A stretch of DNA of 64,000 nt from a bacterium (GCA_037139975.1 JBAXFJ010000001.1:171017-235016); one strand, 5' to 3'. Positions 5,401 to 62,785 are shown, numbered from the stretch's first letter. Translations and numbers: made by a program. The notes: a model not told the origin generated them from the letters alone.

Positions 5401-7784
5401 CCATCGCCGAGTCAGATGAAACCAACAACTGTGGGACATGGACTAATGTAGTGGTTACCGCTGCTCCTGCGTCTGACCTCACCACCTCAGCTGCCCAACC
5501 AACCGCAGCGGTAGTTGGCAACGCTGTCACGCTCTCTGCAACCGTCACTAACCGAGGCACCGCAAGCACTGGCGCAAGCTTCTCGAACTTCTTCCAAGTC
5601 GCCACTGCCACAAACGGTGGCGGCACAGTCACAGACCTTGCTCCTGCGGTGATGTCTGCACTTGCGGCAAATGCATCAGGCGCCACAGCCAAGTCTTACA
5701 CCTTTACTGCTGCAGGCACCTACTCGGTCCGCGCCTGTGCCGATAAGTCTTCTTCTGCGGACCCTGGCGCCATCGCCGAGTCAGACGAAACCAACAACTG
5801 TGGGACATGGACTGATGTAGTGATTGATTATCCTGGAGCAACCTCTGCCCTGCATGGGCAAGGGTGTGTGCTCCCTGTGGGGGGAGGCACATGCAACCTC
5901 ACTGCATGGTGGAGCATCACCGGTCTTACTGCAGGTGAGACGGTTGACGTGAGTGTCACGGGGCCTGGTCTTGCAATACGCACCTTTAAAAATATTCCTG
6001 CAGACTCAACCAAACTCACTCGCGCAACACGCAGAAGTCTTCTTGCTGCGGTGCTGGGTGGTTTTGGCGCTACTCAAGATTCGACAACACCTTTTATCCA
6101 GGCAGTTGGCACTGCAGGGACGTTCAATCTGACACTTACCCGGCACGCCAACCAATCTGCACTAGGTTCGTTTGCACTCTTTGCTTGTCCTCCAGGAACA
6201 ACTAATGTCAACGAAGTTTGCACAGGCGCTCCTGACTTGATAGCGGGTGCCACAGTGCCAACTGCTGCGGTTGCAGGCATCATCACCACGCTTTCGGGAG
6301 TGATCACCAACCAGGGCGGCGCAAGCACCGGCACTACGTTCACGAGCCTGTTTGAAATAAACTCCAACAACAATCCAACAAGTTTCCATAGTATTGAAGC
6401 AACCCAGACCTACGTCACCCCTGCACTTGCGGTGGGTGGTACAAACACCGCAACAACGCCTTACAGTTTCCCCGCGTCTGGTACCTACTATGTGCGCCTC
6501 TGTGCAGACACAAACGACAGCAATGTGGGTACCATCACCGAAGCAAACGCTTTGGGTACTGGTGAGACCAACAACTGCGGCCCTTGGACCCCTGTGATTG
6601 TGACCGCTCCTGACCTGATTGCGGGCGGCGCTTCTCCGGTGTCGGCGACCGCTGGCGCGTCCATATTCCTCAGTGCACCAATCTCCAACCAAGGCACCGC
6701 AGACGTCACTCAAAACTTCTCTAACTTCTTTCAGGTGGCGGTTGATGTGAACGATGCCACCACCATTACCGATCTTGCTCCTACCACCATGACTCCCTTG
6801 TCAAAAGGCGCTACACGACTTGCAGCACGACCATATTCATTTGGAGCAGGCACCTACTACGTCCGTGTGTGTGCCGACAAAACGTCACGCAACGATGGGG
6901 GAGTAATCACCGAGTCAAATGCTACCGACGCATCCTCGATTGATACAGGCGAGACCAACAACTGCGGCAGCTGGGCAAAGACGGTGGTGTGCGCGGCGGG
7001 CAAAGTCTATTTTGGCGGCTCGTGTCTCTTTACTCCACCAGGGTGTCCTCTTGATACAGTGAATGATGCTGGGCTGTGTTGCCCAGTGGGACAGGTCAAT
7101 GGTGGTGGTGTATGCGTTCCTTCATGCACAAACGACTATGTGCTTGTGAATAACCAGTGCGTACCCGCGGTATGTTCTGGCACTACCTCGTGTGTTTCGG
7201 GTCCAAACATCTGCGGTATGACGAACCCAGGCACCTATGACCCAGCCACGTGCACGTGCGTTGCCACACCGCCTGCAGATTCTTTGTGCCATATATGCAC
7301 ACCAAACGCCGCGTGTGCCGCAAGTGCTGCAAACAACTGTGGTTCAAGTAGCGGTACTTGCAATGCGGCAGGCAGCTTCTGCGCTCCACCCGCAGACAAC
7401 GTGTCGTGTTCTGTGGGGGCGGTCTGTAACCCAGGACAAGTGGGCACGCCGCCAAACTGCAGCTACCCTGGTTCTACTGGTTCAGTAAATGGTTCAACTT
7501 TCGCTCCAACAATCACACTAAACGCACCTGCGCGTGTTCGTGCGGGAGGCACTGCAACGCTCACGTGGTCTGCAACGGGCTCTACTCAATGTGTTCTGAC
7601 AGGTCCCCACCTGCCAAGTGCGACGGTTACAGTAACTGGTGATGCAAACAGCAATGTTGCAAGTCAACAAGTCGCCGCGACTATCCTGGGACAAAGTGTA
7701 TACACAGTCAGGTGCTCAGGCCTTGGAGGCTCTGTTTCAGTGAGCAGGACGGTAAACCTTATTCCGCAAGTCATCGAACAATAA
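2445..7784 (+). CDS. giant secreted surface protein with CARDB-like and Ig-like tandem repeats and a Cys-rich C-terminal region (adhesin-like)
   Basis: 1779 aa. A signal/TM segment (MRTRTTFLLLAFFLVIGFSSLF) suggests the real start may be the ATG at 2577. Contains 2 N-terminal ~95-aa repeats, 3 (+1 C-terminal) Ig-like 'ATLTWSSTNATSCTAGGPW...YTLQCTG' modules, 4 CARDB-type modules (NRGTASTG...ESDETNNCG) and a ~150-aa cysteine-rich block. Gly/Thr/Ser/Asn-rich composition. Confidence 0.85.
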   Translation: MLLDVVYKAALLFCVPGLVRSRARYPHKSFSYAFAYAKSARIWVMRTRTTFLLLAFFLVIGFSSLFTNQGRGIGAALYSGLIETHIAQAAGSVTNDAGNTWTNYCYGLIEDEMCTVSPLAWENWETCNADGTITANVGWNYVGVPQGSGGWYLQLNSGDLPVSGNLGVADNHTFAGLSPNRSYNIYFDVFLGPRWNSGWWATDNFPGGAAYRNHLNTGPCVSSPTGSISSLTNPCQIASGQTTCTPLFNWNTANTNGTVVTNIVGSAPYADETAYTWYIPANGSGGHGAALPAGNYTIKLYGQNSAGGWVLLDSKPTTVVSAPTGTLTTPSSCYIPSGQTTCTPLFDWQTAQTNGVVQLNIVNANGAQPYPTESLYVANRGTAITGTPGTALPVGTYTVKLYGQNSAGTWVLLDSKQVTIVPFPTATLSVSPTSVAYNGQATLTWSSTNATSCTAGGPWSNASAPLGGTGSTGALIANATYTLQCTGPGGTTPLQSVTVSINNRTPAGYLDSASCSALSGWVVDPDSANSIASVRIFDGPSSTGTLIGTYPTSVFRGDVTEPNTGIAGLVAGNHGFSVPTPASLLGGATHSIYAYGVDIQTGGLTNLGSSPKSITCPTPTATLSVSPTSIAYNGQATLTWSSTNATSCTAGGPWSNASAPLGGSGSTGALIANATYTLQCTGNGQTSALQSVTVGVGAAPVNGVCAATHYSCSAGTSATTVEGASTYTWSCVGLNAGTTASCSEAKPAPTATLAVSPTSVAYNGQATLTWSSTNATSCTAGGPWSNASAPLGGTGSTGALIANATYTLQCTGNGQTSALQSVTVTTSPPLSCTSLWGGAAIANGDSVTAYHTASTIYPATCAQETRACGNGVLSGSYTNQTCAVLQPDLIASTVIPNTAVAGSAVTLSATVTNRGTASTGASFSNFFQVATATNGGGTVTDLAPAVMSALAANASGATAKPYTFTTAGTYSVRACADKSSATDLGAIAESDETNNCGTWTNVVVTAAPASDLTTSAAQPTAAVVGNAVTLSATVTNRGTASTGASFSNFFQVATATNGGGTVTDLAPAVMSALAANASGATAKSYTFTAAGTYSVRACADKSSSADPGAIAESDETNNCGTWTDVVIDYPGATSALHGQGCVLPVGGGTCNLTAWWSITGLTAGETVDVSVTGPGLAIRTFKNIPADSTKLTRATRRSLLAAVLGGFGATQDSTTPFIQAVGTAGTFNLTLTRHANQSALGSFALFACPPGTTNVNEVCTGAPDLIAGATVPTAAVAGIITTLSGVITNQGGASTGTTFTSLFEINSNNNPTSFHSIEATQTYVTPALAVGGTNTATTPYSFPASGTYYVRLCADTNDSNVGTITEANALGTGETNNCGPWTPVIVTAPDLIAGGASPVSATAGASIFLSAPISNQGTADVTQNFSNFFQVAVDVNDATTITDLAPTTMTPLSKGATRLAARPYSFGAGTYYVRVCADKTSRNDGGVITESNATDASSIDTGETNNCGSWAKTVVCAAGKVYFGGSCLFTPPGCPLDTVNDAGLCCPVGQVNGGGVCVPSCTNDYVLVNNQCVPAVCSGTTSCVSGPNICGMTNPGTYDPATCTCVATPPADSLCHICTPNAACAASAANNCGSSSGTCNAAGSFCAPPADNVSCSVGAVCNPGQVGTPPNCSYPGSTGSVNGSTFAPTITLNAPARVRAGGTATLTWSATGSTQCVLTGPHLPSATVTVTGDANSNVASQQVAATILGQSVYTVRCSGLGGSVSVSRTVNLIPQVIEQ
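3713..4915 (+). repeat. three near-identical ~225-bp intragenic direct repeats (about 3713-3940, 4295-4525, 4685-4915)
   Basis: Nucleotide copies beginning ccaaccgcaactctctccgtttctccaacctc... are almost identical at DNA level with irregular spacing (582 and 390 bp). They encode the Ig-like PTATLSVSPTS...LQCTG module. Confidence 0.85.
5095..5820 (+). repeat. two tandem near-identical ~360-bp copies of the CARDB-module coding sequence (about 5095-5460 and 5461-5820), followed by two diverged copies (about 6230-6990)
   Basis: The string ctgtcacgctctctgcaaccgtcactaaccgaggcaccgcaagcactggcgcaagcttctcgaacttcttccaagtcgccactgccacaaacggtggcggcacagtcac occurs in both copies. Confidence 0.85.
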
Positions 7785-9570: not shown

Positions 9571-10350
9571 TTGAACATGAAACGAGCTAAGCCAATTGTG
9601 ATTGCAAACTGGAAAGGCTATGTTGAGACGCCCGAGGAGGCAAAACGCTTTGTGCAGGTCATAAAGCGCAGTACAAAAACCCTCTCTGCGTGTCAGGTGA
9701 TGCTCGCGCCCTCTTTCACGCTCTTGCCAACACTTGTGCCTTTGTTAAAAAACTCTGCTGTTCAGGTCGGGTCGCAGGCAGTCTCCGCACACCCAGGTGG
9801 GGCGCATACGGGCGAGGTTACCGGCGCAATGCTTCGGGCGGTGGGCGCTGTTTTTAGTATTGTGGGTCACTCAGAGCGCCGAGCACTTGGCGGCGCAGGT
9901 GAAAGCGAAGAGGGTATTCAAAACCAAATTGCTCGTGCATGCGAGGCAGGGCTGGGCGTCGTTCTCTGTGTGGGTGAGCATGAACGTGAAGCGTCGGGTG
10001 CGCACTTTGGCATCATTGCGGGACAGCTCGCGTCGGCACTCGCCGCAGTGCCGCTCAAAAACATGGGCAAGCTTATGGTTGCCTACGAGCCCGTGTGGGC
10101 AATAGGAAAAACCGCAGCAGATGCTATGCAGCCCGGCGATGTGCAGGAAGTATTTATTTTTATTCGTAAAATTCTAGTCGAGAAGATCGGCAGAGCGGCG
10201 GCATTGAAAGTTCCCATTCTGTATGGTGGCTCTGTTGAAGAAGAAAATGTACAGGGGCTGTACCATGAAGGTGGAGTAAGTGGTTTTCTGGTTGGGCACG
10301 CGAGCAGCAAGAGCGACTCTTTTATAAAACTTATCAAAGCGCTGCAGTAA
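9571..10350 (+). CDS. tpiA: triosephosphate isomerase
   Basis: 259 aa; NWK, AYEPVWAIGKTA and YGGSV motifs. Confidence 0.9.
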   Translation: MNMKRAKPIVIANWKGYVETPEEAKRFVQVIKRSTKTLSACQVMLAPSFTLLPTLVPLLKNSAVQVGSQAVSAHPGGAHTGEVTGAMLRAVGAVFSIVGHSERRALGGAGESEEGIQNQIARACEAGLGVVLCVGEHEREASGAHFGIIAGQLASALAAVPLKNMGKLMVAYEPVWAIGKTAADAMQPGDVQEVFIFIRKILVEKIGRAAALKVPILYGGSVEEENVQGLYHEGGVSGFLVGHASSKSDSFIKLIKALQ

Positions 10351-10356
10351 CGCTCT

Positions 10357-11355
10357 ATGCAATTACAGTCAATTCATGATGCGGATATAGCAGAAAAACG
10401 TGTCCTGCTGCGCGTTGACTTCAACGTACCGTTTACAGACAGTGGTGCTATAGCTGAAGACTCGCGCATCAAAGCAGTGGTGCCGACCATTGTGCTGCTC
10501 AAGCAAAAAGGGGCTGCACACATCACCCTCATGACTCACGTGGGGCGACCCGAGGGAAAGGTGGACGAGGCGTTGCGTACGGCGCCACTCTTCAAATATC
10601 TCAGTGAGCTGACTGACACCACAGGGGTCGAGATGCTTGAAAACCTGCGTTTTGATGCGCGCGAAGAAGTAAACGACGTGGGGTTTGCACAAGAACTCGC
10701 GTCGCATGGTGATGTGTTTGTGAACGATGCGTTTGCGGTGTGTCACCGGGCGGCGGCTTCTACGGTTGGCGTTGCGGCATTCCTGCCCGCGTACGCGGGC
10801 TTGTTGGTTGAAAAAGAAGTTGCACATCTCTCTGAAGCGCTCATGCCGCCTGTGGGTTCTGTAGCGATTATCGGCGGGGCAAAGCTCGAGACCAAATTAC
10901 CTCTCATCGCGCAGTTTTCTTCTTTGTATACAAAAGTGTGTGTCGGCGGTGCGCTTGCAAACGAGTATGCGCCAACAGCAAACGACACCAACGTATCGCT
11001 CCCGAGCGATGGGGTGCCCCAACACCAAGGAATGCTTGATATTGGCCCACAGACTGCTGCTGCATGGGCAGAAGAGATACGGCGTGCGCCGTTTGTGCTG
11101 TGGAATGGTCCAGTGGGTATGTATGAAAAGCCGGAGTATCGGCACGGCACCGACACGCTTGCTCGGGCAATTGCCGAGGGTTCGTGCCGCGCAGTCTTGG
11201 GTGGTGGGGACACCGACGCGGCGCTCGCGCAGTTCACCTTTGACTCGGAGCGCGTCTTTATCTCAACCGGCGGGGGAGCTATGCTCGAGTTTTTGGCCAA
11301 TGGCGGCACATTGCCCGCGCTTGAAGTGCTTAAAAATCCTAAGGTTAAACCTTAG
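10357..11355 (+). CDS. pgk: phosphoglycerate kinase (short form)
   Basis: 332 aa; RVDFNVP N-terminal motif, HVGRPEGK, and a GGGDT-like C-terminal region. Confidence 0.8.
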   Translation: MQLQSIHDADIAEKRVLLRVDFNVPFTDSGAIAEDSRIKAVVPTIVLLKQKGAAHITLMTHVGRPEGKVDEALRTAPLFKYLSELTDTTGVEMLENLRFDAREEVNDVGFAQELASHGDVFVNDAFAVCHRAAASTVGVAAFLPAYAGLLVEKEVAHLSEALMPPVGSVAIIGGAKLETKLPLIAQFSSLYTKVCVGGALANEYAPTANDTNVSLPSDGVPQHQGMLDIGPQTAAAWAEEIRRAPFVLWNGPVGMYEKPEYRHGTDTLARAIAEGSCRAVLGGGDTDAALAQFTFDSERVFISTGGGAMLEFLANGGTLPALEVLKNPKVKP

Positions 11356-15789: not shown

Positions 15790-16404
15790 CTAATTACTCA
15801 CCTCTGCAAACCGCTCTTCTATCACGCCCCAATTCAGGTTTTTAAAGAAAGCGTCGATGTATTTTGTTTTTCCGGCGGCACCATGGTCGAGCAGGTAGGC
15901 GTGCTCCCACACATCGAGAGCCAAGATAATGGGCAGTGTCGCAAAGTGGCCTTGGTGTTGCTCGCCTGCAAACCCCGCGAGAAACTGTTTTGCTTGTGGG
16001 TCCCAGTAAAGTATCGCCCAGCCCGGGCCGCGCATATTTCCGATGGCTTTGAGGTAGGGCTCGATATGCTCGGCTTTCATGTATTCTTTTTCAAGTTGCT
16101 TGCTCAAGGGATTTTCTGCCTCAAGCGCTTTTGCCCCACCTTCAAATTGTGCAAAGTACAGTTCGTGCAGGCGCATGCCATCGAATTCGAACGAGCGGCG
16201 GCGAATGAGTTCAGAAAGCGCGTGTGCGTTCTTCCCCGCCTGACCGGCCGGCAGGTCCATGTCTTTTGCATACTCGGGCAGCAGCGCCGATATTGCATTA
16301 AAATTTTTGACATATCCGGCATAGAGGCCCAAGTGTTCTTCCACTGACTTGGTCGAGATGCCGTCGAGCTCAGGGATAGTAAACTTTTTTTCTTCGTACG
16401 TCAT
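15790..16404 (-). CDS. Fe/Mn superoxide dismutase-family protein
   Basis: 204 aa; DVWEHAYLLDH C-terminal metal-ligand motif and conserved Tyr (YAGYV). The N-terminal HH-KHH box is reduced to a single His, so it is a divergent member. Confidence 0.75.
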   Translation of the reverse strand: MTYEEKKFTIPELDGISTKSVEEHLGLYAGYVKNFNAISALLPEYAKDMDLPAGQAGKNAHALSELIRRRSFEFDGMRLHELYFAQFEGGAKALEAENPLSKQLEKEYMKAEHIEPYLKAIGNMRGPGWAILYWDPQAKQFLAGFAGEQHQGHFATLPIILALDVWEHAYLLDHGAAGKTKYIDAFFKNLNWGVIEERFAEVSN

Positions 16405-33039: not shown

Positions 33040-33573
33040 ATGTCACGACTTGCAAAACGCCCTATCGCGATTCCAAAACAAGCTGAAATTACAGTTTCAG
33101 CGGATACTATTTCTGTCAAAGGCCCAAAAGGTACGCTGGTGAAGCCTGCGCACCGACTCATCTCGGTTGAAGTGCTCCCCGACGGTGTCCAGGTGGCACA
33201 GAAAACACAGTCGCGCGAGGCGCAGGCGCTCGTGGGCACCTACGCCTCACACATGCGCAACATGATGCACGGTGTGACTACGGGCTTTAGCAAAAAGCTG
33301 CTTGTCGAAGGTGTTGGTTTCAAGTGGGAGGTTGCGGGCAATTCGCTCAACATGGCGCTTGGTTTTTCACACCCAGTTAAAATGATCATCCCTCAAGGAC
33401 TCACGGTGGTTGCTGAGCGCGGCACACTCACCATCTCGGGTTTCGATAAGGAAGCAATCGGACAATTTGCGGCAAACGTGCGCGCGTTCAAGAAGCCTGA
33501 GCCATACAAAGGTAAAGGTATCCGTTATGAAGGCGAGGTGGTTCGTCGCAAGCAGGGTAAGAAATCTGCCTAG
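33040..33573 (+). CDS. rplF: 50S ribosomal protein L6
   Basis: 177 aa. Confidence 0.95.
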   Translation: MSRLAKRPIAIPKQAEITVSADTISVKGPKGTLVKPAHRLISVEVLPDGVQVAQKTQSREAQALVGTYASHMRNMMHGVTTGFSKKLLVEGVGFKWEVAGNSLNMALGFSHPVKMIIPQGLTVVAERGTLTISGFDKEAIGQFAANVRAFKKPEPYKGKGIRYEGEVVRRKQGKKSA

Positions 33574-33593
33574 TGTGAGATTTTGAAACAGAT

Positions 33594-33962
33594 ATGAATA
33601 AGCAAATTGCAAAACAAGAAGGAAAAGAACGTCGCCACAACCGTGTGCGTGCTAAGGTTGTGGGTACCACTGCGCGCCCTCGTCTCGCGGTCTACAAGTC
33701 CAACCGCTACCTGCACGCACAGATCATCGACGACATGGTGGGGAAGACCCTTGTTGCGGGCACCACGCAACCTGCAAAAAAAATAGCTGCAGCAAAAAAA
33801 CTTAAAAAAAGTGAAGCTGCTGACAAACTTGGGGAGAGTCTTGCAAAACAGGCTATCGCTTTGGGTATTACTGCAGTAGTATTCGACCGAGGCGGCTTTC
33901 GCTACACGGGCCGCGTGGCTCAGTTGGCAGAAAGCGCACGGAAAGGGGGTCTCACGTTTTAA
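33594..33962 (+). CDS. rplR: 50S ribosomal protein L18
   Basis: 122 aa. Confidence 0.9.
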   Translation: MNKQIAKQEGKERRHNRVRAKVVGTTARPRLAVYKSNRYLHAQIIDDMVGKTLVAGTTQPAKKIAAAKKLKKSEAADKLGESLAKQAIALGITAVVFDRGGFRYTGRVAQLAESARKGGLTF

Positions 33963-33970
33963 TATACTAT

Positions 33971-34582
33971 ATGGCTGAAACAGAAACAGAAAACATCATA
34001 CCCGAAGTAGTTGTATCCAACGCAGCAGCTCCAGAAGTCGCCGCTCCGGCGGCTCGTGGTGCACGCAATGACCGCCGCGGCGGCCCGGGTGCACGAGGGG
34101 GTACGGGGGGGCGTCCAGGTGGTCGTGGTGGCCCACGCCCACCCCGCGCTCGCAGTGAGTTTGACCAGCGCATGATTACTATTCGCCGCGTGTCTCGTGT
34201 GGTTGCCGGGGGTCGTCGCTTCTCGTTCAGCGTTGCGCTCATTATCGGCAACAAAAAGGGCAAGGTCGGTGTGGGTCTCGGTAAGGCAGGGGACACAACT
34301 CTTGCTATCGACAAAGCAGTTCGTGACGCAAAGAAGCACATGATCATACTCAACCTCACCAAGGACAGTTCTATCAAGCACGAGGTTGCAGCCAAGTATT
34401 GTGCAGCGCGTGTGTCTTTGACCCCTGCGCACGGTCGTGGATTGGTGGCTGGTTCGTCGGTGCGTCCCGTGCTCGAACTTGCGGGTGTGACCAATATAGT
34501 CGCTAAGGTGCGCTCAGGCAGCAAAAACGGCCTGAACAACGCACGCGCTGCTATCGAGGCGCTCAAACTGCTCAAAGCCTAA
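33971..34582 (+). CDS. rpsE: 30S ribosomal protein S5 with Gly/Arg-rich N-terminal extension
   Basis: 203 aa; RRFSFSVALIIGNKKGKVGVGLGKA motif. No rpmD (L30) follows. Confidence 0.9.
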   Translation: MAETETENIIPEVVVSNAAAPEVAAPAARGARNDRRGGPGARGGTGGRPGGRGGPRPPRARSEFDQRMITIRRVSRVVAGGRRFSFSVALIIGNKKGKVGVGLGKAGDTTLAIDKAVRDAKKHMIILNLTKDSSIKHEVAAKYCAARVSLTPAHGRGLVAGSSVRPVLELAGVTNIVAKVRSGSKNGLNNARAAIEALKLLKA

Positions 34583-34619
34583 AGAACATAGAAATTAATT
34601 TCTATACATAAAAAAGTGT

Positions 34620-35066
34620 ATGCAACTCAACGAACTCAAACGAAAAACAGAAAATAAAGACGAAAAGCGCGTTGGTCGTGGTGGTATTCGCGGCAAGACC
34701 TCTGGTCGTGGCACCAAGGGTCAAAAAGCCCGCTCGGGTCACCGCATCCGTCCCGACATCCGCGAACAGCTTAAAAAGATTCCTAAGTTGCGCGGTCGCG
34801 GTGTACATGGTTTGCGCACCATTCAGACAAAGCCTTTGGTGCTTAATGTTTCGTCCCTTGAGACCCTCTTTGCTGCGGGGGACACGGTGACTCCGCAGAC
34901 GCTCATCGAACGTGGTATTTTGCATGTTAAAAAAGGCACCGCCCTACCAAAGGTAAAAATTCTCGGCACGGGCGAGATAGTTAAGAAAATCTCTATTTCT
35001 GGCTGTATGGTCTCAAAAAGTGCGCAAGAAAAGGTAGAAAAGGCTGGCGGCTCCGTACAGAAGTAA
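34620..35066 (+). CDS. rplO: 50S ribosomal protein L15
   Basis: 148 aa; starts 38 nt after rpsE, so there is no room for L30. Confidence 0.9.
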   Translation: MQLNELKRKTENKDEKRVGRGGIRGKTSGRGTKGQKARSGHRIRPDIREQLKKIPKLRGRGVHGLRTIQTKPLVLNVSSLETLFAAGDTVTPQTLIERGILHVKKGTALPKVKILGTGEIVKKISISGCMVSKSAQEKVEKAGGSVQK

Positions 35067-36379: not shown

Positions 36380-36949
36380 ATGGAAGCAAACACCTTTGTC
36401 ATCATGGGTCGGCCGGGTTCTGGCAAGGGTACACAAGCAAAGCTCTTGGCTGAGCGTTTTACCTGCGCCGTAGCATCTCTGGGCACTGAGTTTCGACATA
36501 TGATGGCGAGCGACACCGTTGCCGGGCTGCATCTCACCGCAGGGCTCAATGCGGGAGAGCTTGCGCCGACTTGGTTGGCAAATTATCTAAGCACAAAAGC
36601 ACTTGTTGCACTCGGTGCAGGAGAAAAAATAGTCTTCGATAGTGGCTGTCGGTTTCTTACTGAAGCAGTGCTTTTTGACGAAATAACCACATGGCTTGGG
36701 CGAGACTACCTAGTGCTCTATGTTGATGTGGCTGAAGAGGAGATACGTCGCCGTGTTGCAAAACGAGGTGTAATAGAAGGGAGGTTAGACGACTCGGACA
36801 GCGCGCTCGATAAGCGGATTGAAGAATTTAACACAAAGACGTTACCGGCAATAAACTATTTTCGATCAAAAGGAAAGCTTCTTACTGTCGACGGCGCGCA
36901 AATGGTTGAAGAAGTCTACAAAAGCATCCTAAATGTTATTGGGGTATAA
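36380..36949 (+). CDS. adk: adenylate kinase (short-lid type), copy 1
   Basis: 189 aa; P-loop GRPGSGKGTQ, an FDSGCRF NMP-site analogue and RLDDSD short lid. Confidence 0.8.
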   Translation: MEANTFVIMGRPGSGKGTQAKLLAERFTCAVASLGTEFRHMMASDTVAGLHLTAGLNAGELAPTWLANYLSTKALVALGAGEKIVFDSGCRFLTEAVLFDEITTWLGRDYLVLYVDVAEEEIRRRVAKRGVIEGRLDDSDSALDKRIEEFNTKTLPAINYFRSKGKLLTVDGAQMVEEVYKSILNVIGV

Positions 36950-37547
36950 TACTGCTGTGGAAGAACTAACCGTCATATTTTTGGGCCCACAAGGGAGCGG
37001 CAAGGGCACCCAAGTGGCTCTTTTGAAGGAGTATATCGCCAAGAACAATAGCCGCTCGATTGTCTACTTTACCGCTGGCACTAACCTGCGCGCATTTGCC
37101 ACTAACGAAGGCTACACACAAGAAAAGATCCGCCCACTCATTTCAGCGGGCAAGCTCATTCCCACGTTCATAACCACAGAACTCTTTTCTTCACGCCTCA
37201 TTGGCAGCATGCACGGCAACGAGCACATAATCTTGGACGGGTTTCCGCGCACCATCGACCAAACACCAACTCTGGACACTGCGCTGCAGTTTTATGGGCG
37301 AAAAAATGTGACCGTGCTTTCGTTCACGCTTTCTGATGCTGTGGCGCGCGAGCGCCTCTCAAAGCGCGACCGCGGAGATGATACTGAAGAGGGAATCGAA
37401 GAGCGACTCCGCTGGTCGCACCAAGAAGGCGCGCTGGTGAGCGAGTGGTTCAAAGCAAATTCTTTTTATAGATACATCGAGATCAACGGCGAAGGTCCCG
37501 TTGAAGAAGTGCATCGCAACGTGCTCACCGTGCTCGGTTTTTCTTAA
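36933..37547 (+). CDS. adenylate/nucleoside-monophosphate kinase paralog, copy 2
   Basis: 204 aa; P-loop GPQGSGKGTQ, LDGFPRTIDQ and RGDDTEEGIEERL. Overlaps copy 1 by 17 nt; the true start may be internal. Confidence 0.7.
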   Translation: MLLGYNTAVEELTVIFLGPQGSGKGTQVALLKEYIAKNNSRSIVYFTAGTNLRAFATNEGYTQEKIRPLISAGKLIPTFITTELFSSRLIGSMHGNEHIILDGFPRTIDQTPTLDTALQFYGRKNVTVLSFTLSDAVARERLSKRDRGDDTEEGIEERLRWSHQEGALVSEWFKANSFYRYIEINGEGPVEEVHRNVLTVLGFS

Positions 37548-46442: not shown

Positions 46443-47378
46443 TTACGCGTGCACAGTGATAGGAATAACGCGTCGCCTGTGGCGTAACACGCCAAGGCTA
46501 GCAAGCCCAACCGCGAGCAGAGTGAGCGAGGTCGGTTCTGGTGCACTTGCTCGTGTTTGTTCTGGCCAGAAGGTGATTCCACCTACGCCATTCAACCCAT
46601 CGGCGCTGTTCGCAAAGAGTGAACCGACGCCGGATTGATTAAATACTTCGATGGTGCTGCTCCCTTGATTCGCTGCGTACAGATTGCTGGCCGTATCGAA
46701 AGCAAGCCCAAACGGTCCGTCTACGCTGGTGCTTGCAAACACCGATTCAACTCCGGCGGGGGTAACTTTCAAGATAAGGTTGCGGCTGTGGTCTGCGACA
46801 TAGAGGTTGCCAGCTGCATCGAAGGCAAGACCTATTGGTTGTGAGTTTGGTATTGTGACAAACACCGATGCAGCACCGCCAGGCGTATACCTTTCAATTT
46901 TGTTTCCACCAACACTTGCGGCATAAAGGTTGCCACTAGCATCGAACGCAAGGTATGTGGGTGAACTCACCCCCACATTCGCGAAGACCGAACCAACCCC
47001 GCCCGGTGTGAACTTCTCAATGGTGTTGCCAATGTAGTTCGCCACGAACAGGTTGCCAGCAGTATCGAAAGCTAAACCATACGGCCCAGACAACCCAGTA
47101 TTTGCGAAGACCGAACCAACCCCGCTCGGGGTGAACTTGTCGATGGTGTTGTTGCCGAAGTTTGTTACATACAGGTTCCCAGCGCTGTCGAAAGCGACGT
47201 CGTGGGGGTTGTTCAACCCTGAATTGATGAAGGTTGAGCATACCCCTGCGGGCACACTGCATCTTTCAATTGTGTTGTTGCCCGAGTTGGCTACAAAAAC
47301 GTTGACCAGAGTCGCTCGCGCGTCTGCCAGTCCAAGTAGATAGACAATCGCCAGAATGGCGATGATGATCTTCTGCAT
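46443..47378 (-). CDS. secreted NHL-repeat beta-propeller protein with PEP-CTERM-like C-terminal sorting tail
   Basis: The track ORF extends to 47450; the likely start is MQKIIIAILAIVYLLGLADA (signal peptide). Six NHL-type repeats (GxxxPxGLAFDxxGNLYVAN). C-terminus APEPTSLTLLAVGLASLGVLRHRRR. Confidence 0.7.
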   Translation of the reverse strand: MQKIIIAILAIVYLLGLADARATLVNVFVANSGNNTIERCSVPAGVCSTFINSGLNNPHDVAFDSAGNLYVTNFGNNTIDKFTPSGVGSVFANTGLSGPYGLAFDTAGNLFVANYIGNTIEKFTPGGVGSVFANVGVSSPTYLAFDASGNLYAASVGGNKIERYTPGGAASVFVTIPNSQPIGLAFDAAGNLYVADHSRNLILKVTPAGVESVFASTSVDGPFGLAFDTASNLYAANQGSSTIEVFNQSGVGSLFANSADGLNGVGGITFWPEQTRASAPEPTSLTLLAVGLASLGVLRHRRRVIPITVHA

Positions 47379-47560
47379 TTTCCACCTCTTACTCTTAATG
47401 ATGTAACCGCCCAACGCCGGATGACGCTGGGCTGACTGTTCAAACCTCATTATATATCAAAACAGCACTTCTGTCAAACTAGGAAAAAATAAAAACAGCT
47501 CTCCAATAAAGGGGATAAACAAGGGCGGCACAAATCATCGCGCCGCCTTCACCATTTGTG

Positions 47561-51918: not shown

Positions 51919-52980
51919 TTAGTCGGGCAGGCCGTTCATGACAAGAAAGTTGACGAGTCCGGCCTTGCCTTCGTCTTGATTGCCAAAAAACATAGGCTCA
52001 ACCACGTCTGGATTGTAGCTGTTACGCGTGAGCACCGTGTTGAAGGCAAAGCCGTGTGCGCCGAGCGTAAGGTATTCATAGGCGTCTCTGCCAGATTCGA
52101 TACCGCCCACGGCGATGAGCTTCAGTCCCGTATCTATTATCATCGGCGCGATAGTCAGAATGCCGCCACAGATGAGCGGCCGCAGTCCGCGCCCACTCAA
52201 GCCACCGCGGATCATTGGGATTGCTGGCTTGCCCTGCTTGTTGGTTATGTAGCAGTTTGCCTGCGTGTTCGCATAAACCACATAGTCTATCCCGTAATCG
52301 ATACACGGTTGCACCAACTGTTCGAGCAAGCCTGGGTCGGTAATCGGGGCAATCTTTACTTTCGTTTTCAGGGTGCCGGCACCTTCCTTGAGTGCTGCGA
52401 CTCCTTCACGATAGAGTGGCGGGTCGAAACAGACCACCGACTTGCGCTTCCCACCGGATTCTTGATTGCCGCAGGAAAAGTTCCCTTCGACGCCGTCTGC
52501 GGACTGGGTGATCTGCAAGATGTTCGCCATGTCGCAGTAGTCACGCGGGTTATAGGGGTTGTTCGCGCGACCCGATACGCTGACCCAGAATTGCGAACCT
52601 TTCCCGTTCACCTTTTGACGAAGATCGGACAATCCATCGTCCATATGCGCATCGATTCCTTTGTCGGGGATGCCCAACGCATTGATTGCGTTCCCCGTAA
52701 CTTCGTTGTAGTTGAAGTTGTCGCCCGGGTTTCCATCCCACGGGTGTGGCATGATGGACCCAAAGGTGACGTGTGGCATGCTTGCTTGCGCATACTGCAT
52801 CATCGTTTTGGCATCTTTGCCCGAGCCTGCAGCGTTTCCCCACGGCACCTCTTTCAGTAGATATTCAAGCGCGGTGGCCTCATTCGCAAACGTACGCATT
52901 AGCACTGCTCCTAGTTTGGTTGTTGCACCTGTCGTCCACACATCAACATATCCTACTTTTTCAAAAAGAAAAGGCCGCAT
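51919..52980 (-). CDS. pyrD: dihydroorotate dehydrogenase-family flavoenzyme (class 1-like)
   Basis: 353 aa; NAAGSGKD (substrate loop), NFSCGN (NxSCPN analogue) and IAVGGIESGRDAYEYLTLGA (FMN-binding GG...G.DA). Confidence 0.7.
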   Translation of the reverse strand: MRPFLFEKVGYVDVWTTGATTKLGAVLMRTFANEATALEYLLKEVPWGNAAGSGKDAKTMMQYAQASMPHVTFGSIMPHPWDGNPGDNFNYNEVTGNAINALGIPDKGIDAHMDDGLSDLRQKVNGKGSQFWVSVSGRANNPYNPRDYCDMANILQITQSADGVEGNFSCGNQESGGKRKSVVCFDPPLYREGVAALKEGAGTLKTKVKIAPITDPGLLEQLVQPCIDYGIDYVVYANTQANCYITNKQGKPAIPMIRGGLSGRGLRPLICGGILTIAPMIIDTGLKLIAVGGIESGRDAYEYLTLGAHGFAFNTVLTRNSYNPDVVEPMFFGNQDEGKAGLVNFLVMNGLPD

Positions 52981-57491: not shown

Positions 57492-57536
57492 CTGTGGGTG
57501 CTTGATAGCCGTATATATCTGGTATATACTGTGGGT

Positions 57537-57782
57537 ATGAACGTAAAAGTTATATTCAACACGAATAAAAAGTTAAAAGAAGCGGCGATGAAAAAAGCAC
57601 GCAAAGAAGGACTGACCTATTCTGCTGTGCTTAATATTGCCACTGAGGCATATGTTGGCGATCGTCTGAAGATAACCGCACTCGAACAACATCTCGAAAA
57701 GGCTCGTGAAGAAATTCGCCAAGGGCGTTACTATACTCACGAGCAGGTGATGCGCAAATTAGGTTTGAGTAGCAAGAAATGA
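57537..57782 (+). CDS. type II antitoxin (RelB/ParD-like)
   Basis: The track ORF starts at 57498; the likely start is the ATG at 57537 (MNVKVIF...). Small basic/acidic helical protein whose stop overlaps the RelE-like start by 4 nt. Confidence 0.55.
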   Translation: MNVKVIFNTNKKLKEAAMKKARKEGLTYSAVLNIATEAYVGDRLKITALEQHLEKAREEIRQGRYYTHEQVMRKLGLSSKK

Positions 57783-58030
57783 AAATTCATTATGCTGCTT
57801 CAGCGTTGGAGCAACTTCAAGAATTGCCTGTCATCACGCAAGAAAGGATTCTTGCAAAAATATTTTGGTTTTCTGAGCAAAGGGATCCACTTGTTTATGC
57901 GAAGCGTCTTTCTGGAACACAGTCATACCGTTTTCGTGTTGGGACGTACCGAATACTATTTGATATAGTCGAAAATACTTTGTGGGTTCTCAAAATTCTT
58001 CCTCGTGACAAAGCATACCGGGATTTGTAG
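57779..58030 (+). CDS. relE: RelE/ParE-family type II toxin
   Basis: 83 aa; YRFRVGTYRILFDIVENTLWVLKILPRDKAY matches the RelE/ParE core (R..VG.YR..Y......V.VL.I.HR). Confidence 0.7.
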   Translation: MKIHYAASALEQLQELPVITQERILAKIFWFSEQRDPLVYAKRLSGTQSYRFRVGTYRILFDIVENTLWVLKILPRDKAYRDL

Positions 58031-58032
58031 TT

Positions 58033-59154
58033 TTAAAACCCATTGGTGAGTGGCGAGCCGAGACCGGTTACATAGTCCCAGTGAGTCCTAGCGGTGCAAA
58101 AATAGCCGCAGGAGCCGTTGGTGCCCGAGGTGATGTCGCGAAAGTAGTGACTACTATTTGCACTTGCTTTGTCGGCATAGAGCTGTGCGCCCGTGATGCC
58201 GCTGCCCAAAGCTGCGATGGCTGCCCACTGGGGCGCGCCAGCCGAAGTGCCGCCCACGGTGTACCACTTGCCAAGTCGATAGATAGAAAAGCCCGACGCT
58301 GGGTCGGCGTCATACGAGACGTCGGGTATCGCGCGCATGTCACCTGCTTTTGGTATCGAGTAGTCTGCCTGGAAGTTTGGCTCTTTTTCATATACGCTCA
58401 CGCCACCACCGCTCCCGCTCCACGCGGTCTCTTTTGAAAACGAACCCGTTGAAGTAAACGTCAGCGATGTCCCGCCGACACCAATCACATTTGGCGAACT
58501 CGCAGGCCACGATGTCCCTGCGCCACCGTCGCCCGAAGAAGCAAAAAATACTGCCCCCGACTTTGACACGAAATGCGAATCAAGAGTCGTTTCTTCAAGG
58601 AACTCCGCGCCACCCCAACTCATGGATATTGCGACCGCATCTTTCACTGATGCGGCATAGTCGACTGCTTTGAGCAGGTTCGCTCCCGAAGGAGTGGTTG
58701 CCTCGACCAGTACAATTTTTGCGTTTGGTGCAATCGCATGTGCCCACTCAACATCGAGTGTTGTCTCCATTGCCCAGCTGCTATCGCTTGAAATTTTATT
58801 GCTCATGGGGTGTTTTTGAAAGCAACCGTTCGCGCTGGTGCAAGGAGTGAGATTAAATTGTTTATCAAACGCAGCCAAATCATTTTCTATCGACGCATCG
58901 TCGTATGCACCAACGATGGCGATGATGCCGCGCCCGCCAGACGCGGGGAGATTGTACACAGCTTTTATTACTACAGGCGAAAGTCCTTTAGGTATTTTGC
59001 TCGAGGAGCCATAAATATGGATGGGTGGCCTGCCGCGGTAGTCAGCAAAATGGTACGACGCAGACGCAGAAAAAGGGAGTGTTCCGAACAGTAAAAATAA
59101 TACAAAAAAATATTTTCTTCTCATACGCAATATACAAAATAGTTCTTGCACCAA
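58033..59154 (-). CDS. secreted serine peptidase, S53 (sedolisin)/S8-like
   Basis: 373 aa; signal peptide, SSGDGGAG (SGDxG) and GTSAGAPQWAA (GTSxxAP) motifs. Confidence 0.55.
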   Translation of the reverse strand: MVQELFCILRMRRKYFFVLFLLFGTLPFSASASYHFADYRGRPPIHIYGSSSKIPKGLSPVVIKAVYNLPASGGRGIIAIVGAYDDASIENDLAAFDKQFNLTPCTSANGCFQKHPMSNKISSDSSWAMETTLDVEWAHAIAPNAKIVLVEATTPSGANLLKAVDYAASVKDAVAISMSWGGAEFLEETTLDSHFVSKSGAVFFASSGDGGAGTSWPASSPNVIGVGGTSLTFTSTGSFSKETAWSGSGGGVSVYEKEPNFQADYSIPKAGDMRAIPDVSYDADPASGFSIYRLGKWYTVGGTSAGAPQWAAIAALGSGITGAQLYADKASANSSHYFRDITSGTNGSCGYFCTARTHWDYVTGLGSPLTNGF

Positions 59155-59200
59155 GTATATCAGCCTTATTTATACAATCACCTTTCTTTCATATATACTA

Positions 59201-59917
59201 GTGAGCATGAGTATTGCATTACAGCGGGGGAGCGGGGAGTTGGAAAGATTGAACACAGAGTTGAACGACGAGCAGGTGTTGGCGGACTACAGACGCTCGT
59301 TTGATAATTACCACGCCAGTTTGCTTCCGCGCGTGTTGGGCAACGCCCTTGTGTGGTGCGGCAACGCCGTCTATGGTGAGCGACCGTCGTATTTGAAGTT
59401 TCGCGCAGTCGAGGTCATCGCGCGCGTTCCGTACCAGTCGTGGAACTCGGCGGCATACACGCTGTTGACGCTCTTCTATCGTGACGAAAAAAAAGCGCTC
59501 AAACTTTCGGAGCTTTCACAGTATGCGCGCGTGGCAGAAGACAACGAGACGATGCATGTGGTGGTCATCTCCAGTTTGGCCGCGCATGAAGCAAAAGCAG
59601 GAACCATCCGGCACACCATTGTCCCCATGCTCTTTGCGTTTTTCTACTTCTGGGCGTCCTACCTGCTCTTTTTGATCAAGCCGAAATATTCATTCGAGCT
59701 GAACTACCTGTTTGAAAGCCATGCGTTTGAACAGTATGATCGGTTTTTAAAGTTGCAAGGGCCGGAATTGAAAAAGAAGCCTATTTCAAGCGAGTTTTTG
59801 AACTGGTATGGTCGGCACCCACGTTCGCAGTATGAATTCTTTCTGTCGGTGCGCAATGACGAAATAATCCACCGCAACACGTCTATTGAGGAGATAGAAA
59901 AGACCAAAAAAGTGTGA
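59201..59917 (+). CDS. alternative oxidase / PTOX-family di-iron carboxylate quinol oxidase-like protein
   Basis: 238 aa; four-helix Fe ligand motifs in order: RAVEVIARVP (LET.A.VP), EDNETMHV (NERMH), LFESHAFEQY (LEEEA.H.Y) and RNDEIIHRN (RADEA.HR). Confidence 0.7.
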   Translation: MSMSIALQRGSGELERLNTELNDEQVLADYRRSFDNYHASLLPRVLGNALVWCGNAVYGERPSYLKFRAVEVIARVPYQSWNSAAYTLLTLFYRDEKKALKLSELSQYARVAEDNETMHVVVISSLAAHEAKAGTIRHTIVPMLFAFFYFWASYLLFLIKPKYSFELNYLFESHAFEQYDRFLKLQGPELKKKPISSEFLNWYGRHPRSQYEFFLSVRNDEIIHRNTSIEEIEKTKKV

Positions 59918-59928
59918 GCGAAATAAAT

Positions 59929-60957
59929 CTACTTTTTCAGCAGCAAAATTTTATACATCTGCAAGGTCGATAGGAAAAGCGAGAGGACCAGCGGTCCCAA
60001 GATGAAACCCATAGGTCCAAAGAAGAGAATGCCGCCCAAGAGAGAGCAGATGATGAAGATGGGCGGCACTTCGAGTCCTTTGCCAAAAAAGTAGGTGGTG
60101 AGGAGGTTGTCGACCAAGACCACCATCCCCAAGCCCAAGAGCCCGCACAAGAGTGCGGCGAGCATCTGTCCTTTGAGATATAAAAAGACGACGGCGGGGA
60201 TGATCACAAAGAGTGTCCCCAGACCTGGGACCGCGCCCACAATGCCACCCACAATACCCCAAAGCATTGCGTTGGGAATATTGAGGAAATAGAACGCAAG
60301 ACCAAAACACGCCCAGCGGATGAGCGCGACCAGGAGTGTGCCACGCATGACCGAGCCTATGGTCTGCTCCATACTTTGTAAAATTTTGTCTGTGTGTTCA
60401 CGTTGAAACGGGCTGAGCGAGACGAGCGTGGTATATATCTTAGCTCCGTCACGCAAGAAGAAAAAGAATGCGAGGAGCATGAGTGATGTTTCAAGCAGCA
60501 GGAAAAGTGTTTGCGATAGGAACGCGCCCAGATTTTGAGACATAAACGAAAGCGCCTTTGCAACATAGGCACTGATGCTGAAGGTAAAGGCGGGGTAGAG
60601 GTGACGAATAGGGGTTTCAATGGCAGTGCGCAACACCTGTGCATAGTTGCCTTCGTTTCCTTGCGAAGCCAGGTAGGCCAACTGTGCTTCTTTGAATATT
60701 TGCAGACCGAGGAAAAAGAGCGGCACTATAAAGAATGCCAACACGGCACAGACGAGCAGTGCCGCGGCAAATGTCTCGGACTTGCCCAGCAGGCGGGCGA
60801 GCACGGTGAATGGTCGTCGACAGAGAATTGCCAACACCGCGGCGAGCGCGAGCATCTGCACAAAGGGTAGGAACACGAGAAAGATAAGGAGCGATGCTGT
60901 TCCAAATAAAAGTACAAACGCACTGGTTTCAAGAGTTGTTTTGTCCATAAAACTCAT
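59929..60957 (-). CDS. AI-2E family transporter (UPF0118 / PerM-like membrane protein)
   Basis: 342 aa; 8 TMs with the AI-2E arrangement. Confidence 0.6.
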   Translation of the reverse strand: MSFMDKTTLETSAFVLLFGTASLLIFLVFLPFVQMLALAAVLAILCRRPFTVLARLLGKSETFAAALLVCAVLAFFIVPLFFLGLQIFKEAQLAYLASQGNEGNYAQVLRTAIETPIRHLYPAFTFSISAYVAKALSFMSQNLGAFLSQTLFLLLETSLMLLAFFFFLRDGAKIYTTLVSLSPFQREHTDKILQSMEQTIGSVMRGTLLVALIRWACFGLAFYFLNIPNAMLWGIVGGIVGAVPGLGTLFVIIPAVVFLYLKGQMLAALLCGLLGLGMVVLVDNLLTTYFFGKGLEVPPIFIICSLLGGILFFGPMGFILGPLVLSLFLSTLQMYKILLLKK

Positions 60958-60992
60958 AATAACAGAGTTTTTTCGCGAGGGGTTGGTTTTTG

Positions 60993-61079
60993 CGGAGAGA
61001 GCGAGATTCGAACTCGCGGGCCTAATTAAAAGCCGACAGTTTAGTAAACTGTTGATTTAAACCACTCATCCATCTCTCC
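60993..61079 (-). tRNA. class-II (long variable arm, G73) tRNA, Ser-like, apparent anticodon ACU (unusual)
   Basis: Reverse complement ggagaga-tg-gat-gagtggtttaa-atc-a-acagt-ttactaa-actgt-cggcttttaattaggcccg-gcgag-ttcgaat-ctcgc-tctctcc-g. Good acceptor, T and D arms; the 5-bp anticodon stem is perfect and the loop reads uuACUaa. Confidence 0.55.
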
Positions 61080-61102
61080 AGATAGATCGGTACTGACCAA
61101 TA

Positions 61103-62785
61103 CTACAGCATCACTCGCATAAAAGTAAAAAAAGTAGTACGGTACATAGCGTACGCTAGGGCGGAGTGCACAGTAGAGAATAGTGTACGGAGACGTGTCA
61201 GAGTGGTCGAATGTGCCTCCTTGCTAAGGAGGTAGGGCGCAAGCCCTCGTGGGTTCGAATCCCACCGTCTCCGCCAAAAAACGAAATCGGATTTTAGAGC
61301 CGAAATGGGGTCGCGCCGAAGGCGCGACACTAATGCATTCCCCCCGCCGAATTCAGAATCCAAAAGGGTTTTCCACGCTCCGCGTGGCTCAAAAAGTACG
61401 GTTCGATCTAAAATTTTAAAGTTCGAACCGACTTTTTTGAATTCCCGAAGTATTTCTTCGGGAATTCCCTCGTTTGCCAATTCCGTATTGGTAATATTGG
61501 CTTTTAGAAATTTTTCTGTAAGTTCGAACCGATTATTCGCTTTTTGTTCAAAAGATGATAATTTTTCTTTGAAAAGCTGTTTTTGGTTTACCAACTGATT
61601 TTTCGTTTCTCGATATTCTTCAAGTGATAACGAATTATCGAGATAGAGTGTCATCAGCTTTTCAATCTTTTTTTCGGTTGAAAAAATTTCATCTTTTGTA
61701 TTTTGAACAAAAAGGGTAGACGATTGGACTTCCGATTGCCGATCTTTTGAATTTTCGGCAATCATCCATTTTGTCCAATCGTCTGGCAAAGAAACTTTTT
61801 TGATTTCATTTTGAATTTGAGAAGTGATGAGCTCCTCACGAATATACGGTTGAGCACAGGGATTTTTCCGTTTGGTACATCGCAAATAGTTATGACCTTT
61901 TTGTTGTTCGGTAGTAATAAAACATCCACATTCTCCGCAATGGAAAAATCCACGATAGATGTATGGCTTAAGTCCTTTGCTATGCGGTTTAGATTTTCTC
62001 ATCATCACTTCTTGAACGGAATCAAAAAGTTTCTTTGAAATAATCGGTTCGTGCTTTCCTTCGTGGATTTCACCACCATACCGAAGCAATCCGCAAAAAA
62101 TCGGATTTTTTAACATATTATGAATATTGGAAATAGAAAGTTCTTGCTCTTTCCTTGAACGCAGTCCAAGTTCATTAACCATGTCTCTAACTTGTCGGAG
62201 TGTGTACTTGCCACTTGCGTAGGCCTCAAACGCTCTCACGATATATGGCGAGCGTTCGGGGTCTGGAACGATAACTTTCTTATCACTATCGTTTAGATAG
62301 CCCACAGGAGCGTTTTGAGGCCAAATACCATCCTTCAATTTTTGACGATGACCACGCTTAATATTCTCCGACAAATTATCCACATAATACTTGGACTGCG
62401 AAAATGCTATTGAGAGCATGAACTTTCCTTGTGGTGTTGGATCAAACCAAAAAGTTGAAAATTTCAAATCCAAAATTATTTTGGTATCAACAAGGTAAAT
62501 AATTTTACCACCGTCTACGGAATTTCTCGCAAGTCTATCGGGGTGCCACGCTAAAATTCCATTTGCCTCACCAGCTTCCATGCGGAGAAGCATTTCATTA
62601 AAGACTGGCCGACCCGGAATCTTGGCGGTTTGTTTTTCCACGAAAATATCTACAACCTCAATTTGTTCTTTAACCGCCAACTCTTTGAGTTCGGCCAGTT
62701 GATCCGAAATGCTTCTCACTTGCCGATCTTTGTCATCGGTAGACTTGCGAGTATATATAAAAAACTTTTTGGTTTGATTATTCAT
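61103..62785 (-). CDS. large serine recombinase (resolvase/integrase family); C-terminal ~95 codons are read-through of IR-L and tRNA-Ser, and the true 3' end is uncertain
   Basis: N-terminal resolvase catalytic domain IYTRKSTDDKDRQ...SISDQ (Ser nucleophile), recombinase domain and zinc-ribbon (C..C...C..C), then a coiled-coil. There is no in-frame stop until 61103, so the annotated end is an artefact or the gene is disrupted. Local AT-richness relative to its surroundings. Confidence 0.75.
   Translation of the reverse strand: MNNQTKKFFIYTRKSTDDKDRQVRSISDQLAELKELAVKEQIEVVDIFVEKQTAKIPGRPVFNEMLLRMEAGEANGILAWHPDRLARNSVDGGKIIYLVDTKIILDLKFSTFWFDPTPQGKFMLSIAFSQSKYYVDNLSENIKRGHRQKLKDGIWPQNAPVGYLNDSDKKVIVPDPERSPYIVRAFEAYASGKYTLRQVRDMVNELGLRSRKEQELSISNIHNMLKNPIFCGLLRYGGEIHEGKHEPIISKKLFDSVQEVMMRKSKPHSKGLKPYIYRGFFHCGECGCFITTEQQKGHNYLRCTKRKNPCAQPYIREELITSQIQNEIKKVSLPDDWTKWMIAENSKDRQSEVQSSTLFVQNTKDEIFSTEKKIEKLMTLYLDNSLSLEEYRETKNQLVNQKQLFKEKLSSFEQKANNRFELTEKFLKANITNTELANEGIPEEILREFKKVGSNFKILDRTVLFEPRGAWKTLLDSEFGGGNALVSRLRRDPISALKSDFVFWRRRWDSNPRGLAPYLLSKEAHSTTLTRLRTLFSTVHSALAYAMYRTTFFTFMRVML
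61189..61276 (+). tRNA. tRNA-Ser (anticodon GCU), CCA encoded
   Basis: ggagacg-tg-tcagagtggtcgaa...cctcc-ttGCTaa-ggagg, long variable arm, gtgggttcgaatcccac T-arm, cgtctcc-g-cca. Confidence 0.85.
61271..61390. repeat. IR-L: 120-bp terminal inverted repeat that starts inside the 3' end (CCGCCA) of tRNA-Ser
   Basis: A perfect reverse complement of 62951-63070; contains an internal hairpin ggggtcgcgcc-gaag-ggcgcgac. Confidence 0.85.

Follow-up and report, generated by a model that had tools for sequence, protein, structure and literature searches.

We describe a small di-iron oxidase encoded at positions 59207-59917 (plus strand) of a 64,000-nucleotide stretch of a bacterial genome (GCA_037139975.1 JBAXFJ010000001.1:171017-235016, hereafter the window). 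The gene is genuine, and its product is a small di-iron protein of the superfamily that holds the alternative oxidase (AOX) and the plastid terminal oxidase (PTOX). By sequence comparison it is nearer PTOX than mitochondrial AOX, yet it belongs to a clade of its own, found in the Candidate Phyla Radiation (CPR, or Patescibacteria). Our preferred reading, which we hold with a little more confidence than doubt, is that it is a functional monotopic quinol:O2 oxidoreductase. It would conserve no energy and would act as an O2 scavenger, a redox sink or both, with quinones probably coming from outside the cell.

The open reading frames listed for the window include one of 238 aa at 59201-59917 (plus strand) with a GTG start. 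Public gene calls hold the identical protein from an ATG at 59207, two codons inside the GTG, which makes it 236 aa long. The stop codon is the TGA at 59915-59917. Residue numbers below are counted from the GTG at 59201. Either length agrees with the compact bacterial-type form proposed in a preliminary description of this DNA.

Pfam gives a single match, AOX (PF01786), at 38.5 bits against a gathering cut-off of 22.7 (E = 1.3e-9). It spans residues 64-228, corresponding to model positions 53-211 of 216, and precomputed PF01786 annotations are present on every listed homologue. No NCBIfam model matched the oxidase. Sequence searches of the PDB, by phmmer and with a 23-sequence family profile, returned only chance matches to G-protein-coupled receptors and missed the trypanosomal alternative oxidase (TAO) at E ≤ 10. 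An AlphaFold2 model computed on the family alignment is all-helical (pLDDT 84.5, pTM 0.85) and has the four-helix bundle and additional long helices of TAO. When the model was compared with the PDB by Foldseek, the top 14 matches were TAO chains (probability 0.91-1.00) and all others stood at 0.28 or below. The best match, in structure or in sequence, is thus not a soluble di-iron protein of the ferritin, rubrerythrin or Dps type. The preliminary description had named a different di-iron family, for example a rubrerythrin-like one, as the outcome of structure prediction that would overturn its assignment. Since the strong matches are all TAO, the assignment to AOX/PTOX-type di-iron carboxylate proteins stands, together with a Pfam score above the gathering cut-off and invariant iron ligands and Tyr179. 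The protein is a member of this family, with its fold and an intact active site.

Active-site residues were mapped with hhalign onto a TAO reference sequence identical to PDB chain 3vv9_A and cross-checked in an 80-sequence MAFFT alignment. The hhalign alignment to the single TAO sequence looks correct, with a probability of only 1.2%, and was used for residue mapping alone. All four motifs listed in the preliminary description are present, on the plus strand. Motif 1, given there as RAVEVIARVP (residues 68-77), reads RAVEVIARVPY over residues 68-78 (59402-59434) and carries the iron ligand E71 (TAO E123). Motif 2, EDNETMHV (residues 113-120; 59537-59560), holds the ligands E116 and H119 (TAO E162 and H165) and the second-sphere residue N115 (TAO N161). 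Motif 3, LFESHAFEQY (residues 170-179; 59708-59737), contains E172, H174, A175, Q178 and Y179. Motif 4, RNDEIIHRN (residues 218-226; 59852-59878), contributes the ligands E221 and H224 (TAO E266 and H269) and D220 (TAO D265). The resulting ligand order, E ... ExxH ... E ... ExxH, is that of TAO E123, E162/H165, E213 and E266/H269.

The six ligands (E71, E116, H119, E172, E221 and H224) and Tyr179 are invariant in 23 of 23 aligned homologues. Y179 corresponds to Y220, the catalytic tyrosine of TAO, and N115, A74, A175 and D220 correspond to TAO N161, A126, A216 and D265. These five positions, like the ligands, are unchanged across the CPR clade, a second bacterial clade described below, PTOX and TAO. 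Other positions differ from TAO. K66, two residues upstream of motif 1, occupies the place of TAO R118, a conservative change, and TAO L122 is replaced by V70. TAO E215 becomes H174, and PTOX likewise has a histidine here; TAO L212 becomes F171 and TAO T219 becomes Q178. The TAO aromatic pair Y246/W247 is conserved as W202/Y203, in swapped order. Published work (PMC9243770) is our source for how the four-helix bundle and Tyr220 function in AOX and for the membrane-binding surface formed by helices alpha1 and alpha4.

Helices alpha1 and alpha4 bear on one further remark of the preliminary description, that the protein lacks the N-terminal membrane-anchoring helices typical of mitochondrial AOX. 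That premise was wrong: mitochondrial AOX is monotopic, has no N-terminal transmembrane anchor and binds the membrane through these two helices (PMC9243770). Both have equivalents in the oxidase. Residues 41-58 (59321-59374, plus strand) form an amphipathic helix that is the positional equivalent of TAO helix alpha1, with its membrane-binding face, and ends in YGER, as in PTOX. Residues 135-159, TIRHTIVPMLFAFFYFWASYLLFLI (59603-59677, plus strand), are equivalent to TAO helix alpha4. They include the oxidase's hydrophobic maximum (1.97 on the Kyte-Doolittle scale, 19-residue window), which aligns with TAO's own maximum, and are the presumed monotopic membrane anchor. The oxidase thus probably binds the membrane monotopically, as judged from its sequence. 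Two homologues (P0084 and P0088) have an extra C-terminal transmembrane helix.

To place the oxidase within the superfamily, we searched 1.84 billion cluster representatives with the family profile (E ≤ 1e-3). Only 489 matched. The tight family forms one cluster at 50% identity; a handful of deep relatives come next, ahead of proteins at about 60-110 bits. PTOX-like proteins score about 60-75 bits, and one of their clusters includes the Nannochloropsis "immutans protein" (PTOX). TAO, compared with the 278 proteins gathered to that stage, scored above 32.5 bits with none of them. A neighbor-joining tree (distance-based, 205 columns) was rooted on TAO, and rooting on this single AOX is an assumption. 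It has three clades: A, the CPR proteins and their deep relatives; B, compact prokaryotic proteins of 220-290 aa; and C, PTOX. Pairwise identities are 26% between the oxidase and PTOX, 14% between the oxidase and TAO, and 22% between PTOX and TAO. On these sequences the distance between the CPR clade and PTOX is about that between PTOX and AOX, and the clade has its own signature residues. The preliminary description, which had matched motif order and spacing to AOX/PTOX, was therefore right about the superfamily, but the two subfamilies are not equally near. Membership in the PTOX subfamily would entail grouping with it in the tree, Arg at the R118 equivalent and Thr before the Tyr; the oxidase falls in a separate clade and has K66 and Q178. 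It also lacks the marks of mitochondrial and proteobacterial AOX, namely detectable similarity, the LET[VI]A[GA]VPG motif and Glu at TAO position 215.

Homologues number more than 1,297 at E ≤ 1e-3; in the best 120 listed, lengths run from 227 to 263 aa and identity is 62% or higher. Among the matches listed, named sources are Kaiserbacteria, Yonathbacteria, Adlerbacteria, Paceibacterota, Minisyncoccia and "Patescibacteria group", and several proteins are already labeled "alternative oxidase" (NCBI) or "ubiquinol oxidase" (JGI). When GTDB was scanned with each species represented by a single genome, the locus turned up in at least 218 species representatives. The best 80 of these 218 loci are from Patescibacteria metagenome-assembled genomes (MAGs), except for one labeled Gammaproteobacteria. 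The oxidase is thus widely distributed in Patescibacteria genomes. No copy was found on viral contigs.

Two archaeal contigs carry relatives that are about 45% identical. One (L011, gene at 10001-10696) carries a block of rpoH, split rpoB, split rpoA, L7Ae, NusA-KH and S12. The other (L013, gene at 1899-2585) has an S27-family (PF01599) ribosomal protein and a 645-aa GatB_N/GAD/GatB_Yqey protein, which we take to be archaeal S27ae and GatE. Our guess is that both contigs are DPANN. These relatives point to sharing between domains, among small-genome bacteria and archaea.

Conservation was compared over one set of genome pairs, drawn from the 80 loci with the highest similarity to the oxidase. 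Median pairwise identity is 0.65-0.71 for the oxidase, against 0.67 for L19, 0.49 for RuvA, 0.45 for RuvX and 0.36 for PilM, with the oxidase figure biased upward because the loci were chosen for similarity to it. Conservation like that of ribosomal protein L19 implies strong constraint rather than an idle gene, and these sequence comparisons indicate strong purifying selection.

The rest of the window fits the reduced, apparently fermentative genome suggested in the preliminary description. Its ribosomal operon at 33040-35066 (L008 13614-15640) encodes L6, L18, S5, L15 and SecY with no L30 between S5 and L15, and the absence of L30 is a trait of all CPR (PMC5220378). Glycolysis-related genes (TIM and PGK) and a malic enzyme gene are present, and the 64 kb contain no respiratory or quinone gene. 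A homologue of Fe/Mn superoxide dismutase at 15790-16404 (minus strand; Sod_Fe_C, 62.9 bits) indicates that the organism meets oxygen.

Oxidase neighborhoods vary between genomes. We clustered 1,645 open reading frames from 84 loci and annotated the recurrent families, which include a PduO-type cobalamin adenosyltransferase, a DUF5673-like protein, EamA and riboflavin kinase, with PilM/PilN a few kb away. In the Paceibacteria loci of L014-L093 the oxidase is often convergent with the adenosyltransferase (10 loci) or the EamA transporter (7 loci) and divergent from the DUF5673-like 156-aa gene (10 loci), and riboflavin kinase lies about 1 kb away (11 loci). Because these four nearest recurrent neighbors are mostly on the opposite strand, they probably represent shared gene order rather than an operon. 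No conserved operon partner was found among the 84 loci.

Candidate electron-transfer partners were considered and rejected. DsbB, which would give a path from DsbA/DsbB through quinone and the oxidase to O2, occurs once, three genes downstream of a relative in L012, and phmmer found no other copy in the 84 neighborhoods. An FAD dehydrogenase of the DAO family adjoins the oxidase in L010, with just one more weak match. As for a quinone-dependent dihydroorotate dehydrogenase, the window's DHO_dh-family flavoprotein (51919-52980, minus strand) is very divergent and far below every NCBIfam PyrD cut-off. It has Cys in place of Ser in its catalytic-base motif NFSCGN, which we take to be class-1-like, and it does not recur near the oxidase. 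Genomic context gives no clue to the electron donor, since the 64 kb hold no respiratory or quinone gene, the oxidase has no operon partner, and the DsbB and DAO neighbors are single cases.

In the mechanism that we propose, two irons held by four Glu and two His in the four-helix bundle would reduce O2 to water. Electrons would come from a lipophilic quinol entering on the membrane side past Tyr179. The reaction would pump no protons and be non-electrogenic, so that the role would be O2 scavenging, a sink for reducing equivalents or both, rather than energy conservation. The oxidase would re-oxidize a small quinone pool after its reduction by some flavoprotein, and the quinone would probably be acquired from a host or the environment. 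We infer the quinol donor, the source of quinone and the physiological role. CPR are thought to obtain lipids from hosts (PMC9938205). The scavenger role would parallel a precedent in Parcubacteria, where a cytochrome o ubiquinol oxidase without the rest of the chain has been read as a means of O2 scavenging or detoxification (PMC5220378, PMC9938205).

Several observations weigh against the proposed quinol oxidase. Similarity to any characterized enzyme is low (14% to TAO, 26% to PTOX), and neither phmmer nor the profile found TAO at E ≤ 10. The residues of the quinol or inhibitor cavity in TAO (R96, D100, R118, L122, L212, E215, A216 and T219) are partly changed: R96 and D100 in helix alpha1 have no clear counterpart, and the changes T219 to Q178 and L212 to F171 are unlike both characterized subfamilies. 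The upward bias of the conservation figure belongs here too. The 64-kb window has no gene for quinone biosynthesis, for a quinone-reducing dehydrogenase or for another respiratory component. No quinone or respiratory gene recurs near the oxidase across the 84 loci, so that neither donor nor quinone source is indicated. A rather unlikely, though by no means negligible, alternative shares the fold and the O2-activating di-iron site with our proposal but couples them to a non-quinol reductant, lipophilic or soluble, or to an oxygenase or hydroxylase reaction with a lipid or metabolite as substrate. In terms of function, "alternative oxidase" would then be a misleading name. Against this stand the retained equivalents of Y220, A216, A126, N161 and D265, a basic residue at the R118 position and the membrane-facing helices. 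The sister clade also speaks against it, being found in MAGs of Acidobacteria and Rokubacteria, which are free-living, respiring, quinone-containing soil bacteria.

Other explanations carry far less weight. The gene could be an ordinary AOX of proteobacterial or eukaryotic origin that was picked up recently by horizontal transfer and is functionally idle, as might be thought from its place beside a tRNA-Ser and serine-recombinase island and from the one CPR sequence with PF01786 that has been attributed to transfer from Proteobacteria (PMC9540462). The data contradict this, and we regard it as very improbable. The oxidase stands apart from canonical AOX (of the 278 proteins, none exceeded 32.5 bits with TAO), forms its own deep clade and is as conserved as a ribosomal protein. 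It occurs in varied chromosomal contexts in at least 218 species-representative genomes, with no copy on viral contigs. G+C content around the gene is 0.50, near that of the rest of the window, against 0.42-0.46 in the island to the right. The fold ranking similarly contradicts a generic ferritin-, rubrerythrin- or Dps-like protein for iron or peroxide storage or detoxification with no membrane oxidase role, which we consider hardly credible.

CPR bacteria are generally portrayed as obligate fermenters that lack electron transport. That they abound in oxic groundwater and soil has been ascribed to superoxide dismutase, thioredoxin and occasional cytochrome o (PMC9938205, PMC5220378, PMC12577380). 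In the searchable open-access literature, an AOX-family gene in CPR is mentioned only in one sentence of an AOX phylogeny, which reports the single PF01786 sequence ascribed to proteobacterial transfer (PMC9540462). Two papers on oxygen adaptation in CPR do not mention an AOX-family gene (PMC12577380, PMC9938205). Detection of the gene is not new, because Pfam recognizes it and NCBI records already name it. What stands out is a distinct clade with its own signature residues in organisms reported to have no respiratory chain.

The family offers a single-gene O2 reductase, with L19-like conservation among the 80 most similar genomes, that is carried by at least 218 species-representative genomes. 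If the enzyme is active, Patescibacteria cells carrying it consume O2 enzymatically and must hold a lipophilic electron carrier thought to be beyond their own synthesis, and this would suggest that they acquire quinones from hosts. For enzymology, an oxidase of 230 aa represents a minimal AOX/PTOX scaffold free of targeting and regulatory extensions. A broader picture, which we offer only tentatively, is that of a third, symbiont-associated branch of AOX/PTOX. Its members would serve as the only O2-reducing enzyme in ultra-small Patescibacteria and in some small-genome archaea that have no respiratory chain or quinone synthesis. They would draw on host-membrane quinones or a non-quinone donor, may have been exchanged between CPR and archaea, and would be a key overlooked determinant of oxic tolerance.

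The immediate surroundings of the gene are compact. A promoter-like site (TATACA, 17 nt, TATACT) at 59171-59199 on the plus strand matches the sigma-70-like consensus at only 9 of 12 positions and sits within the 46-bp gap before the divergent upstream gene. Its -10-like hexamer TATACT ends at 59199, 7 nt ahead of the ATG at 59207, so the ATG start fits and, to judge by this spacing, the transcript may be leaderless. The upstream flank is a divergent 372-aa gene (58033-59154, minus strand) with no Pfam or NCBIfam match. Its product carries a hydrophobic segment at the N-terminus and contains GGTSAGAP, a motif reminiscent of serine peptidases of the subtilase or sedolisin type. At 57498-58030 (plus strand), about 1.2 kb upstream of the oxidase, genes for a 94-aa protein without Pfam match and an 83-aa ParE-type toxin overlap by 4 bases; this two-gene cassette is probably a type II toxin-antitoxin pair. 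Downstream, a convergent gene for an AI-2E-family transporter (59929-60957, minus strand) lies 11 bp past the oxidase stop.

Beyond this transporter lies the island. A large serine recombinase of 560 aa (61103-62785, minus strand) overlaps the gene for tRNA-Ser(GCT) (61189-61276, plus strand) with its final ~60 codons, its C-terminus reading antisense through the tRNA. Past the window end follow an FAD_binding_4/ALO oxidase and a second serine recombinase (island 60992-62785 and beyond; L001 11897-19978). G+C content falls rightward into the island, from about 0.52 to 0.42-0.46. This looks like an element integrated at tRNA-Ser, directly beside the oxidase locus. A second, AT-rich tRNA-Ser-like gene (60992-61079, minus strand), to which ARAGORN assigns the unusual anticodon ACT, is 77% identical to tRNA-Ser(GCT) and may be element-borne.

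Farther away, the window holds other genes of interest. A giant 1,779-aa protein (2445-7784, plus strand), followed by a type II secretion/type IV pilus ATPase gene, has the cell-adhesion-related domain CARDB as its sole Pfam match and may be an adhesin on the cell surface that serves host attachment. After SecY, at 36380-37547 (plus strand), tandem adenylate-kinase-family genes of 189 and 204 aa overlap by 17 bases. An NHL/beta-propeller repeat protein (46443-47450, minus strand) ends in a C-terminal PEP-CTERM sorting motif (23.9 bits), which is unexpected in a CPR-type genome.

PTOX (IMMUTANS), known from plastids, cyanobacteria and algae and also matched by PF01786, is the nearest characterized subfamily. 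It shares with the oxidase the ARVPY of motif 1, the YGER ending alpha1, the His of E-x-H-A in motif 3, and the ligands, Tyr, Asn and Asp. The oxidase is set apart by a signature of K66 in place of Arg at the R118 equivalent, F171 in place of Val or Ile at the L212 equivalent, and Q178 in place of Thr before the Tyr. It is also shorter, at about 230 aa against 280-400 aa, and lacks both a transit peptide and a long N-terminal region. Unlike PTOX hosts, its host has no photosynthesis or plastoquinone.

The TAO of Trypanosoma brucei (PDB 3VV9, 3VVA) has AGVPG and E215 where the oxidase has ARVPY and His. Compared with TAO, the oxidase has a shorter alpha1-alpha2 linker and neither a targeting peptide nor a long dimerization arm, and it carries its own conserved N-terminal segment of 40 residues. 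Clade B, the sister group of the CPR clade in the tree, is closer in form. It comprises more than 4,352 compact proteins, here taken as 218-260 aa, with named examples from the Acidobacteria and Rokubacteria MAGs that JGI labels "ubiquinol oxidase". Its members are 25-31% identical to the oxidase and share its size, architecture, K66, F171, H174 and all ligands. They differ in having Glu in place of Gln before the Tyr and Gly or Ser in place of R218. The cytochrome o (bo3) ubiquinol oxidase of some Parcubacteria and Saccharibacteria is an analogy in function only, since it is an unrelated, multi-subunit, proton-pumping heme-copper enzyme and the oxidase described here is a single 26-kDa di-iron polypeptide.
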